Sequence record: OQ845958.1
Length of the DNA: 64,000 bases
Source of the DNA: Escherichia phage pEC-M719-6WT.2
Strand: one strand, 5' to 3'
How positions within the stretch are numbered: position 1 is the first letter of the stretch; every line of letters starts with the position of its first letter. The translations under genes were made by a program, and so were the position numbers. This document shows positions 17,377 to 41,104 of this stretch, piece after piece. Below the pieces are notes generated by a model. The model worked only from the letters and a program-made list of their open reading frames with translations. It made no database searches and was not told the DNA's origin.

Positions 17377-17843
17377 ATTATGATAGAATTTATCCTTGTG
17401 ATTTTATTAATGGCCCTGGATGCAGGGTCGTTCTTTTCGTCACAGGTTGTTTGCATAAATGCGAAGGGTGTTATAATAAATCAACATGGAATGCTAGAAA
17501 TGGTGTTCCATTCACTGGTGAAACACTAGAACAATTAATTGAATGTTTGGATAATGATTATATAGAAGGATTAACTATAACTGGAGGAGACCCTCTCTAT
17601 CCTGATAACCGAGATGTTATTCAATCTGTGGTTCAAACTGTTAAAAATCTTTATCCAAATAAAAGCATTTGGATGTGGACAGGATATAAGTTTGAAGATA
17701 TTAAACAACTAGAAATGCTTAAATATGTTGATGTTATTATTGATGGGAAGTATGAGAAAAATCTTCCGACCAAAAAACTGTGGCGAGGGTCAGATAATCA
17801 GCGACTTTGGTCAAATACCGATGGGGTGTGGAAACATGATTAA
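17373..17843 (+). CDS. nrdG: anaerobic RNR activating enzyme (radical SAM)
   Basis: 156 aa; CLHKCEGC radical-SAM cluster motif; overlaps nrdD stop. Confidence 0.9.
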   Translation: MNYDRIYPCDFINGPGCRVVLFVTGCLHKCEGCYNKSTWNARNGVPFTGETLEQLIECLDNDYIEGLTITGGDPLYPDNRDVIQSVVQTVKNLYPNKSIWMWTGYKFEDIKQLEMLKYVDVIIDGKYEKNLPTKKLWRGSDNQRLWSNTDGVWKHD

Positions 17844-17957
17844 ATTTAATTATATTATGGATACTATAAATGATATGATTTTTCATTTTGGTCCAGAATT
17901 TTATTCGCAGTATAGTTTAGTGCTTATCAATGCTTGGTTAATCAATTAAGGGTAAAT

Positions 17958-38468: not shown

Positions 38469-38660
38469 ATGACTGCAATGTGTACGGGCTCTAAGATTTC
38501 GGTCTTCCAGATTTTTGAAGAATATGAAATCGTGTCGCAAGACCAAGAAGCAATCCATGTTATCGCTGATGATGGTGTTACCTGGATTATTCCGTTGTAT
38601 CATGAAGACACCTATGAAGTGACTGATGCAAATGGCGATAAAGCTATCTTCGTTGTATAA
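38469..38660 (+). CDS. hypothetical protein
   Basis: 63 aa. Confidence 0.4.
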   Translation: MTAMCTGSKISVFQIFEEYEIVSQDQEAIHVIADDGVTWIIPLYHEDTYEVTDANGDKAIFVV

Positions 38661-38663
38661 ATA
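38656..38663 (+). promoter_or_regulatory. T4-type late promoter (TATAAATA)
   Basis: exact octamer overlapping stop of upstream gene, 18 nt before SD/ATG of 38681. Confidence 0.5.
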
Positions 38664-38680: not shown

Positions 38681-38848
38681 ATGAAAACATTCAAAGATTT
38701 TATCAATGAAGATATGGTTGCCGGTGATGCAGGTGGAAACCCAACTAATATCGCAACAGGTACCACTTCCGGGGCAGTTGTCAATAAAGGTCCTGAACAA
38801 ATCCCATCAAAAAAGCGTAAGAATAAAGACGATAAACCTACAGTATAA
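38681..38848 (+). CDS. small late protein with capsid-targeting-sequence-like N-terminus (candidate internal/injected peptide)
   Basis: 55 aa, hand-translated; N-terminus MKTFKDFINE resembles T4 internal-protein CTS MKTYQEFIAE with I-x-E prohead-protease site; late promoter; basic C-terminus. Confidence 0.45.
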   Translation: MKTFKDFINEDMVAGDAGGNPTNIATGTTSGAVVNKGPEQIPSKKRKNKDDKPTV

Positions 38849-38880: not shown

Positions 38881-39909
38881 ATGTCATATATTGATAGAGA
38901 ATTTGCAGTCAAAGCTTTATCGTATCAACCACGTTACAGAGAAGTCACCGGGAGCACATTTAAGGCAAACTGTCGTTGTAAGGTTTGTGGTGACTCCCAG
39001 AAAGATTCGCACAAGGCTCGATTCTGGGCGTATACCAATCCATCTGATGGTGCGGTTTACGTGAAATGTTTTAACTGTGACTACTCCACGCATATAAGCA
39101 AATACATAAAAGAGTTTGAGCCGGATTTGCACCGGGAATATATGGTTGAGAAGTACAAGGAAAACGCCTTCGGTCGACAACGTAATGAAGTTGCAGAAGC
39201 TCCGAAAGAACCAGAAAAAACTCCGGTTATTGAAGAGCTTGCTTTTTGTGAAAGAATTGATACTTTACCAGAAGAGCATCCGATAGTTAAGTATGTAAAA
39301 AGTCGGTGTATTCCGAGCAATGTTTGGAACCGGTTATGGTTTACAAACAAATGGCCTGCATTAGTTAACTCCGTTAATCCTGGGACGTATAAGAATGAAA
39401 CGAATGAACCACGCTTGGTTATTCCTATCTTCAACGGCAAAAAAGAAATCGAATCTTTCCAAGGACGAGCTCTTCGCAAAGATGCACCACAAAAATATAT
39501 CACAATCAAAGCTCACCCAGAAGCTTCCAAAGTCTATGGCGTAGACAAGATTGATGAGCGCAAGCGCGTGTGGGTAATGGAAGGTCCGATTGATAGTTTG
39601 TTTATCCCTAACAGCATTGCGATAACTGGTGGAACATTAGCATTGGAAGCCGTTCCTTATGCTGAAACCCGAGTATGGGTAATGGACAACGAGCCAAGAC
39701 ATCCGGATACGATTAAACGTATGAAGAAGCTCGTTGAAGCGGGTGAAGCCGTTATGTTCTGGGACAATGCACCATGGCATACGAAAGACATAAATGAGAT
39801 GGTTAAATCGGAGGGCGCAACCCCTGAACAAATCGAATCATATATGGCCGATAACATTGCTCAAGGGTTGATGGCGAGAATGCGACTTTCGAAGTACGCA
39901 AAAGTTTAG
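38881..39909 (+). CDS. 61: DNA primase gp61
   Basis: 342 aa (same as T4 gp61); N-terminal zinc ribbon CRCKVCG...CFNCDY; toprim-like core. Confidence 0.9.
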   Translation: MSYIDREFAVKALSYQPRYREVTGSTFKANCRCKVCGDSQKDSHKARFWAYTNPSDGAVYVKCFNCDYSTHISKYIKEFEPDLHREYMVEKYKENAFGRQRNEVAEAPKEPEKTPVIEELAFCERIDTLPEEHPIVKYVKSRCIPSNVWNRLWFTNKWPALVNSVNPGTYKNETNEPRLVIPIFNGKKEIESFQGRALRKDAPQKYITIKAHPEASKVYGVDKIDERKRVWVMEGPIDSLFIPNSIAITGGTLALEAVPYAETRVWVMDNEPRHPDTIKRMKKLVEAGEAVMFWDNAPWHTKDINEMVKSEGATPEQIESYMADNIAQGLMARMRLSKYAKV

Positions 39910-40027
39910 GAAGGAATTCCGGTAAGTTCCGCAGAAAAACATCAAGAGCTAAAAAGCCCATGATGTTTCTTGTCTTTCTTACTGGTTAATTTCCAAATCC
40001 GATGGAATAATATTCACATTATTCCAT

Positions 40028-40225
40028 CTATATAAGGCCGATTAATGCCAGTAAAATATCTACAACTGATTCGAGTGCAATGACTGGTAATATAACACCA
40101 TGTGTCAATGCAACAGGGGCAACAACGAAGTTCCATAGTAGAACTAAACAGAGTATCGAAAGGACCAGAATCGTTCGCTTACGACTGCCTTTGATGGCTT
40201 GAATTAGACTAGATAGTTTGAGCAT
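40028..40225 (-). CDS. small two-helix membrane protein (minus strand)
   Basis: 65 aa from ATG preceded by strong SD GGAAGGAGGA; two hydrophobic helices; ATAAATA late-promoter-like element about 20 nt upstream on minus strand. Confidence 0.45.
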   Translation of the reverse strand: MLKLSSLIQAIKGSRKRTILVLSILCLVLLWNFVVAPVALTHGVILPVIALESVVDILLALIGLI

Positions 40226-40310
40226 ATATCCTCCTTCCGTGTATTTATGCTTCAAACCAATATGATATAATTAACATACAAAATAACATGAATTGATAAG
40301 GAAAAATATA

Positions 40311-40829
40311 ATGGCTCATTTTAATGAATGTTCACAACTGATTGCCGGTGTTGATAAAGCTGCTCTGGCTTATGACAATGCAATTACAAAAGGTACTGAC
40401 CCGCTGCAGATTATGCTTGATATGCAGAAATCATTGCAAGTTCGTCTGGCTACTGAAAAACCAGAATATAACTCACATCCAGATGAATTGGCTACTGCAG
40501 GTGATGTTGTTGCATGGCTTCGTAACCAGAAAGATTATATCGACGACGAATTCCGTGAACTTCTGACTTCTCTCGGTGGTATGTCTAATGGCGAGAAAGC
40601 TGCATCTAGTGTATGGAAACCATGGAAAGTCCAACATGCTGAATTCCGTAATCGTCGTATTGATGAGTTGTCTCCCGAAGACCAGCTCGAAATTAAATTT
40701 GAGATGATTGATATCCTGCACTTTGTTCTGAACATGTTCCATGGCCTTGGACTGACTGCAGAAGAAATCTTTAAATTGTATTACCTGAAAAACGCTGAGA
40801 ACTTTGCTCGTCAGGACCGGGGTTATTAA
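40311..40829 (+). CDS. 56: dCTP pyrophosphatase gp56-like (MazG-type)
   Basis: 172 aa from ATG 40311; N-terminus MAHFNEC and C-terminal EEIFKLYYLKNAENFARQDRGY match remembered T4 gp56. Confidence 0.8.
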   Translation: MAHFNECSQLIAGVDKAALAYDNAITKGTDPLQIMLDMQKSLQVRLATEKPEYNSHPDELATAGDVVAWLRNQKDYIDDEFRELLTSLGGMSNGEKAASSVWKPWKVQHAEFRNRRIDELSPEDQLEIKFEMIDILHFVLNMFHGLGLTAEEIFKLYYLKNAENFARQDRGY

Positions 40830-40831
40830 GT

Positions 40832-40839
40832 TATAAATA
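40832..40839 (+). promoter_or_regulatory. T4-type late promoter (TATAAATA) for soc
   Basis: exact octamer about 30 nt upstream of soc ATG. Confidence 0.55.
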
Positions 40840-40870
40840 CACCCGTAATTAAACAACAAAGGAGTTAATT

Positions 40871-41104
40871 ATGGGTGGTTTCGTTAATATCAAAACCTTT
40901 ACGCATCCAGCTGGTGAAGGTAAAGAAGTTAAAGGTGTTGAAGTATCTGTTCCGTTTGAAATCTATTCAAATGAGCATCGTATTGCGAATGCACACTATC
41001 AGACTTTTCCTTCCGAAAAGGCCGCTTATGTCACCGTAGCGTCTAGTGCAGCTGATTGGCGAACTAAGAACGCGGCGATGTTTACGCCTACCCCAGTAGT
41101 TTAA
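40871..41104 (+). CDS. soc: small outer capsid protein Soc
   Basis: 77 aa; YVNIKTF and AHYQTFPSEKAAY match remembered T4 Soc; late promoter; next to 56. Confidence 0.85.
   Translation: MGGFVNIKTFTHPAGEGKEVKGVEVSVPFEIYSNEHRIANAHYQTFPSEKAAYVTVASSAADWRTKNAAMFTPTPVV

Follow-up and report, generated by a model that had tools for sequence, protein, structure and literature searches.

An open reading frame (ORF) on the minus strand of Escherichia phage pEC-M719-6WT.2 (OQ845958.1), lying in the 402 bp between the primase gene 61 and the dCTPase gene 56 (39910-40311), is on comparative evidence a genuine coding gene under purifying selection. The stretch analysed, here called the window, is 64,000 nucleotides (nt) long and comes from a Gaprivervirus, a T4-like phage; over the 2.4 kb that surround the ORF it is 98.9% identical to TH22, TH55 and UPEC07. 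The encoded protein, MLKLSSLIQAIKGSRKRTILVLSILCLVLLWNFVVAPVALTHGVILPVIALESVVDILLALIGLI, has 65 amino acids (aa). On balance we favor the view that the ORF is a real gene, accessory in T-even-type phages, whose product is a membrane protein, probably made late in infection. Comparison across genomes establishes coding capacity, family membership, convergence with gene 61, conservation of an upstream promoter-like box, a hydrophobic architecture and the turnover of a paralogue.

The gene, its family and its protein

The minus-strand frame was pointed out in a first-pass annotation of this DNA, and we found it in the sequence as described, with an ATG start and a TAG stop (Table 1). The protein matches PHROG 2024, a family with no assigned function, with an E value of 6.4e-26, residues 1-65 aligning to profile positions 1-65 of 65. 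A tblastn search of 50,697 phage records found homologues in 926, 708 of which cover at least 80% of the query, and these span more than 10 genera. Conservation in related phages had been proposed in the first pass as a check, and the ORF proved to be intact in hundreds of genomes. Because phmmer recovered only three clusters among 1.84 billion cluster representatives, and a profile search gathered 120 proteins of about 41-74 aa without any Pfam domain, the family appears to be restricted to phages; a scan of IMG/VR returned three genomes only, all already known. Within these collections it is confined to T4-like phages of enterobacteria, almost all of which carry the gene beside the primase gene. 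No paralogue was found elsewhere in the window (tblastn, E <= 100).

Selection on the protein was estimated from 12 genes of the window's subtype (type A, see below). Pairwise Nei-Gojobori ratios of nonsynonymous to synonymous substitution (dN/dS) ranged from 0.08 to 0.6 and were mostly 0.2-0.35; the comparison of RB69 with NC-G gave 0.076, with dS saturated. Variable sites numbered 42, 19 and 56 at codon positions 1, 2 and 3, so that position 2 was the least variable. The list of ORFs also contained a 75-aa version that starts at TTG and extends to 40255, which we rejected as the conserved start since all homologues begin at ATG.

The gene is already catalogued, is uncharacterised and is not new as a gene. 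Nearly all database entries examined call it a hypothetical protein, including the identical proteins of UPEC07 and pEC-M719-6WT.2 in GenBank, and stray automatic labels read 'Holin', 'holin family protein', 'putative membrane protein', 'dCTP pyrophosphatase' and 'DNA packaging ATPase'. A literature search returned no paper mentioning RB69ORF029w, the RB69 member.

In every genome examined, the gene lies opposite the early-gene strand, is convergent with gene 61 and abuts or overlaps its stop codon, though the neighbor on the far side varies (dam, 56, homing endonucleases or ORFs without an assigned function). Synteny was checked in Tequatrovirus (T4 and T2, with Pu-Krd-SF4, unclassified in its record, having a T4-type ORF and gene order), Mosigvirus (RB69), Gaprivervirus (EAWsc9, TH15 and SP18), Dhakavirus (NC-G and IME341), Marfavirus (F48, with the closely similar HMGUkp2, whose record names no genus), Jiaodavirus (ATCCa), Kanagawavirus (PEi20 and Kosakonia phage 305), Gelderlandvirus (SEA1) and Mosugukvirus (PM2). 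A 4-nt overlap of the two stops is annotated in Pu-Krd-SF4, RB69, HMGUkp2, T2, IME341, Kosakonia 305 and Bas37, and the same overlap is made by an unannotated ORF of T4 and by a second, type-B copy in VR26.

The T4 homologue is intact, 66 aa long and 49% identical to the window protein (NC_000866 17738-17938, plus strand; L003 3239-3439). Its Shine-Dalgarno (SD) sequence is AAAGGAGG, its upstream box GATAAATA and its upstream sequence GATAAATAttaatttaAAGGAGGatatatATG. In T4, dam ends at 17625 and gene 61 at 17935, and the 309-bp gap that holds the homologue is blank in both the NC_000866.4 and AF158101.6 annotations. The gap between 61 and 56 in the window does correspond to the place of dam in T4, but T4 has both dam and the homologue, and the suggestion that the window gene stands where T4 would carry dam needs correcting in this respect. 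The exact T4 protein has no NCBI or UniRef accession in a collection of 15 billion proteins, CRISPRi-ART targets annotated coding sequences only, and the T4 gene table of HIDEN-SEQ has no entry between dam and 61 (bioRxiv 10.1101/2025.11.20.689424). Being absent from the reference annotations and from the T4 gene tables of a recent genome-wide screen, the homologue is never reported on by T4 data sets. T4 is the best-studied phage, yet its reference annotations omit an intact copy of a gene that is under selection in its relatives. The source phage differs from T4 in having no dam between 61 and 56 (39910-40311) and no segF between 56 and soc (40830-40870).

The membrane assignment made in the first pass is supported in several ways. 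The N-terminus is basic and amphipathic, with a net charge of +5 in the window protein and +2 to +5 across subtypes, and the next 23 residues are of transmembrane (TM) grade in all subtypes, with Kyte-Doolittle means of 1.4-2.5. AlphaFold2, run with an 84-sequence alignment, predicts helices at residues 4-10, 14-41 and 51-62 (pLDDT 76), and one TM segment (21-41) and no signal peptide have been predicted for RB69ORF029w (Nolan et al. 2006, PMC1524935). The best later 19-mer scores 1.9-2.5 in subtype A and 0.8-1.5 in B, C and D, and the tail of D contains an arginine. The window protein does have the two hydrophobic segments first ascribed to it; a two-TM hairpin is not a family feature, since only the first segment is of TM grade throughout. 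By the positive-inside rule, we infer a single-pass protein with its N-terminus inside and a short tail in the outer leaflet or periplasm, and the window's subtype might re-insert this tail into the membrane. A cleavable signal peptide, which the sequence A-x-T/H-G after P37 could have indicated, was set aside: the hydrophobic core is about 19-23 residues long, and the published prediction for RB69ORF029w is negative.

The residues W31, N32, P37 and G43 are invariant in the 84 sequences, and P47 and G63 are present in at least 90% of them. They are concentrated where the helix is predicted to reach the periplasm and in the loop after it, and the core motif W-N-x4-P-x5-G-x3-P, placed after a basic N-terminus, is present in the window protein.

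Table 1. Positions of the minus-strand gene and of the features around it in the window.
Feature	Position	Strand	Remarks
Gene 61 (primase)	38881-39909	+	5' border of the gap
Decayed type-B paralogue (pseudogene)	39910-40027	-	118 bp; from alignment with VR26, VR20, SP18 and TH15
Hairpin 2	39931-39972	-	Terminator-like, tail TTGATGTTTT; on the plus strand a T-rich run follows it
Hairpin 1	40001-40028	-	Perfect 12-bp stem, 4-nt loop; begins with the final base of the stop codon
Coding sequence including stop, 65 aa	40028-40225	-	ATG start, TAG stop; type-A member of PHROG 2024
Shine-Dalgarno GGAAGGAGGA	40229-40238	-	4 nt before the ATG
Late-promoter-like box CATAAATA	40242-40249	-	7/8 match to T4 TATAAATA; C at -13
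Middle-promoter-like site for gene 56	40248-40271	+	MotA-box-like TGCTTCA at 40248-40254, 11-nt spacer, TATAAT at 40266-40271
Gene 56 (dCTPase)	starts 40312	+	3' border of the gap
soc	40871-41104	+	Perfect late box TATAAATA at 40832, 31 nt before the ATG

Shine-Dalgarno sequence and late-promoter-like box

The SD sequence GGAAGGAGGA deserves its earlier description as unusually strong. Of the three copies of AAGGAGG in the 64 kb, this one alone stands before an ORF; the other two sites (43273 and 57317) were considered, and neither lies ahead of a plausible ORF. An SD of the AGGAGG/GGAGG type was found in all homologues examined.

Upstream of the SD lies CATAAATA, which differs at one position from the T4 late promoter box TATAAATA. 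The one-mismatch resemblance noted in the first pass is correct. The distance given with it, about 20 nt further upstream, is not: the box is separated from the SD by 3 nt and from the ATG by 16 nt, and the predicted transcript start is near A40236. In order to compare loci, the upstream regions of 16 of them were anchored at the first ATG of the cassette, and ATAAATA was found 12-22 nt before that ATG in 15 of the 16. The same strand of the same loci has five copies in 60.7 kb, giving an expectation of 0.003 per 45-nt window. The element is thus conserved far beyond chance, in at least 10 genus-level lineages, and since the flanks have diverged past alignability between genera, it is the box itself and not its neighborhood that is conserved. 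Other genera, too, keep the ORF, the SD and the box as a set. In tandem pairs (VR26 and NC-G), the second gene lacks a separate box.

The base in front of ATAAATA varies. It is C in Gaprivervirus, NC-G, PEi20 and the proximal box of ATCCa; G in T4, T2, PM2 and a second box of ATCCa, 33 nt upstream; and A in Pu-Krd-SF4, RB69 and IME341. It is T, which gives a perfect TATAAATA, in two lineages, the Marfavirus-type phages (F48 and HMGUkp2) and Kosakonia phage 305. According to Nolan et al. 2006 (PMC1524935), the late box occupies positions -13 to -6, and relatives of T4 show little conservation of the T at -13. As a control we used the T4 late region, where 30 copies of ATAAATA occur in 50 kb and the distance from box to ATG of annotated genes is 12-35 nt (14 for gene 19 and 17 for gene 51). 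Spacings in the homologues are within the range of T4 genes 19, 51 and 26. We consider it likely that the gene is transcribed late. Literature searches for a Ribo-seq, transcription start site or expression study of T4 that covers the locus found none.

ATAAATA is depleted about 3.3-fold in the window, with seven copies observed, two of them on the minus strand, where dinucleotide shuffles predict 23 +/- 4.4. Such a deficit would fit selection against stray late promoters in the early region. Perfect copies of TATAAATA number four in the window, all on the plus strand. One of these, at 38656-38663, is 17 nt before a gp61.1 homologue (38681-38848) and just ahead of gene 61, and could give late transcription of 61.1 and 61 in the source phage; T4 and RB69, unlike the window, have no box before 61.1.

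The opposite strand may carry a promoter as well. Read against the middle-promoter consensus, TATTTATGCTTCA contains the MotA-box-like TGCTTCA of a candidate site for gene 56 (Table 1), and its TG is the complement of the CA that opens CATAAATA, so that the two elements overlap back to back by 2 bp. The arrangement of TGCTT(C/T) with TATAAT is also present in VR26 and NC-G, suggesting that divergent middle and late promoters may share sequence here. The C at -13 may accordingly be imposed by the MotA-like TGCTT on the other strand in Gaprivervirus and Dhakavirus; as a general cause of that C, the MotA box fails in PEi20 and ATCCa.

Subtypes, a decayed second copy and hairpins

At least four subtypes can be told apart among the homologues; what they have in common is limited to the core W-N-[FLY]-x-[VL]-x-P-[ILV]-A-x-[AT]-[HQ]-G-x-x-[LV]-P, and identity across subtypes is 25-37%. 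Subtype A includes the window protein, T4 and RB69. Subtype B, beginning MGTLFYQIWKL, was found in 129 records from Dhakavirus, Marfavirus, Karamvirus, Gelderlandvirus and Mosugukvirus, while C is the form of Jiaodavirus and D that of Kanagawavirus. The subtypes replace one another, and where A and B occur as a tandem pair, the copies decay independently. In VR26, VR25 and TH15, A is followed by a B copy that is intact (66 aa in VR26) and overlaps the stop of gene 61. In the window, the 118 bp between the type-A gene and gene 61 are the remnant of such a B copy. Its second codon has become TGA, and 2 bp and 85 bp have been deleted, the latter between short repeats; in the closest relatives of the window (TH55 and UPEC07), a residual match of 89.7% to residues 4-33 persists. 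The B copies of VR20 and SP18 carry lesions that differ from these. Within Dhakavirus, IME341 has B, and NC-G has a frameshifted B followed by an intact A. The split B of NC-G (L009 1806-2008) is either a real pseudogene or a sequencing error. To judge from these patterns, one copy evidently suffices, whichever its subtype.

Beyond the stop codon, the first-pass annotation had reported a 9-bp inverted repeat. The repeat is real and longer than stated, with a stem of 12 bp (hairpin 1), and it lies inside the B remnant and so is not an element of the gene's own. The counterpart of this stem in VR26 is imperfect; it spans both the SD and the ATG of B, which is intact there. Six substitutions make it perfect in the window. 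In VR26 (L006 1695-1730) this hairpin may couple or throttle translation of the B copy; the stem was perfected in the window's lineage after B had died. Hairpin 2 is the sole terminator-like site in 39700-40500 and is a candidate bidirectional terminator between the minus-strand gene and gene 61. A 131-nt minus-strand RNA from this region folds with -43.2 kcal/mol (z = -6.1). A match of both hairpins (39933-40019, minus strand) to the Rfam family SpF11, a Streptococcus small RNA, reached 29 bits against a gathering threshold of 54 (E = 0.026) and is almost certainly due to chance.

Possible functions and comparison with known systems

If the gene is a late accessory gene for a membrane protein, then late in infection gp55-directed RNA polymerase would initiate from the NATAAATA box, which precedes the ATG by about 16 nt, producing a short leader with a near-perfect SD, and the mRNA would end in the hairpins left from the decayed second copy. 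The product would be a 65-residue inner-membrane protein whose basic amphipathic N-terminus is kept in the cytoplasm. A single TM helix at about residues 18-41 would carry the invariant W-N-x4-P-x5-G-x3-P at its periplasmic end, followed by a 12-residue C-terminal helix at or in the outer leaflet, and the invariant, Asn-containing helix end would bind a partner helix or self-associate. We tentatively suggest an accessory role at the periplasmic face of the inner membrane, in the timing or inhibition of lysis or in conflict between phages or between phage and host. A more specific proposal, that this late envelope component modulates holin/antiholin timing or late superinfection and competition through W-N...P...G, with subtypes A-D as specificity alleles, we regard as unlikely.

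The only experimental evidence comes from a T4 relative, Bas37. By position, size and strand, we identify bas37_0144 as the Tequatrovirus orthologue: it occupies 91945-92145 on the plus strand, has a length of 201 nt and shares 4 nt with the primase gene (bioRxiv 10.1101/2025.11.20.689424). HIDEN-SEQ recovered insertions in 20 of its 24 TA sites and classed it as non-essential, and it is not among the genes that the authors discuss (bioRxiv 10.1101/2025.11.20.689424). The orthologue is dispensable, and a core morphogenetic role is excluded. Because deletion is tolerated, the gene is easy to test.

Several points weigh against a late membrane accessory. To our knowledge, classical rapid-lysis genetics mapped no locus here. 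SEA1 has ATTAAATA only, and the predicted leader is merely about 11 nt long. Among the 15 boxes that stand before genes in the T4 late region, the first base is T in 12, A in two and G in one and never C, and because of this the promoter of the window gene, with C at -13, may be weak. A list of 31 RB69 late promoters obtained with a hidden Markov model does not include one at RB69ORF029w (Nolan et al. 2006, PMC1524935). For bas37_0144, log2 fold changes in three host comparisons were +0.33, +0.20 and -0.28, all with q = 1 (bioRxiv 10.1101/2025.11.20.689424). No homology to a characterised protein was found: Pfam, NCBIfam and PADLOC gave chance-level matches only (Syndecan, 0.054; REase_II, 0.049), a sequence-profile search of the PDB returned only YejA and TM segments of the nicotinic acetylcholine receptor (E >= 0.19), and Foldseek with the predicted structure against PDB and BFVD returned only family members or hits with E > 5. 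Searches with the family profile and predicted structure likewise gave no homology link to holins, Imm, Sp or RI. The roles suggested in the first pass, in lysis, superinfection exclusion or membrane depolarisation, thus gain nothing from homology.

The alternative that survives best is that the protein is an anti-defense or inter-phage competition factor, which neutralises a membrane-bound abortive-infection effector or excludes competitors, with A-D as specificity variants; we consider this possible, if doubtful. Subtype replacement within a genus, as between IME341 and NC-G, and tandem duplication with independent decay of the copies both fit it, as such swapping and repeated loss of one copy is the pattern usual in conflict genes. 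So does the company the gene keeps, since sp and dmd are among the early genes that precede gene 61, as is 61.2, whose product is reported to be an anti-DarT factor. Dispensability of the orthologue on K-12 would also be expected. On the other side, expression is apparently late, whereas known T4 exclusion genes and most anti-defense genes are early, dN/dS is below 1 with residues held invariant, and the orthologue has no conditional phenotype in three host comparisons of HIDEN-SEQ and is not among the genes that its authors highlight.

An effect at the level of RNA, in which a late antisense transcript into the 3' end of gene 61 shuts down or processes primase mRNA and the ORF is secondary, is improbable. 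The convergence with gene 61 is invariable, as this explanation would have it, and the stops overlap by 4 nt in many phages. A purely RNA-level role is nonetheless contradicted by selection acting on the protein, with residues invariant across subtypes that are only 25-37% identical; the strong SD speaks against it as well, and in the window two hairpins and 118 bp part the ORF from gene 61.

More improbable still is the identity given by a few automatic annotations, a holin or pinholin. The label 'holin family protein' is attached to the identical protein of EAWsc9 and 'Holin' to one UniRef entry (OE5505), and the protein is indeed small, hydrophobic, probably late and provided with at least one TM segment. 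Against this, Pfam and NCBIfam holin families give no match at E <= 10; the C-terminus, ...ESVVDILLALIGLI, which ends in ALIGLI, has a net charge of -2 and no basic residues in place of a charged hydrophilic tail; the neighbors are primase and dCTPase genes, with no adjacent endolysin; and the second hydrophobic segment falls below TM grade in B, C and D. For lysis T4 relies on gene t, and since t mutants fail to lyse, T4 has no redundant holin; the orthologue is also non-essential. Lacking a charged tail, a family match and a lysis cassette, and with T4 needing t, the protein is very unlikely to be a stand-alone holin. A lone depolarising role, raised in the first pass, is unlikely because T4 needs gene t and insertions in bas37_0144 were without phenotype in three host comparisons. 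Finally, a chance antisense ORF without a product is effectively refuted: many antisense ORFs of comparable length occur in the AT-rich window, so that length alone is not significant, but this one occupies an intergenic gap, is preserved intact across hundreds of genomes of more than 10 genera, has a dN/dS well below 1 and keeps its SD and start.

The preferred reading, a probably late accessory gene for a membrane protein, is an ordinary finding as far as the gene itself goes and is mildly notable because the T4 annotation omits the homologue. The comparative evidence makes the locus a strong candidate for an additional late gene, antisense within the early replication cluster. The useful by-products are a comparative case for a new late promoter and the recognition of a gap in T4's reference annotation. 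Should the product prove to be a late envelope component, the blank dam-61 gap of the reference annotation will have kept it from notice in T4 for decades.

Among known T-even proteins, the RI antiholin has an N-terminal membrane segment and a periplasmic C-terminus, and rI mutants give the classical r plaque type. The family resembles RI in being a small T-even protein with an N-terminal hydrophobic segment and a C-terminus predicted to face the periplasm, and the helix of the RB69, NC-G and ATCCa members is rich in Gly, Ala and Ser, as in a signal-anchor-release domain. It differs in showing no detectable similarity of sequence or fold and in having a tail of about 22 aa, whereas RI has a periplasmic globular domain of about 70 aa; the helix of the window protein is instead Leu-rich and strongly hydrophobic. 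We know of no r locus that maps at this position. Imm and Sp are likewise small T-even envelope proteins, and sp lies a few genes upstream of gene 61, but they are early or middle genes on the early strand, while the window gene, preceded by a late-type box, lies on the other strand, and no homology was found. Class II holins and the pinholin S21-68 are similar in size (about 65-70 aa) and in the two hydrophobic segments of the window's subtype, and are unlike it in the charged C-terminal tail, lysis cassette and family match that are missing here; the second segment is not of TM grade in other subtypes, and the orthologue is non-essential. The soc gene offers a parallel of another kind, being a small gene with a TATAAATA-type box within the early cluster, although it is on the early-gene strand and its product is a soluble capsid decoration protein. 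The closest counterparts are the members of PHROG 2024 themselves: RB69ORF029w, VR7ORF033w and bas37_0144 have the same length, position and orientation beside gene 61 as the window gene and show no substantive difference from it, the window combining a subtype A gene with a decayed subtype B.

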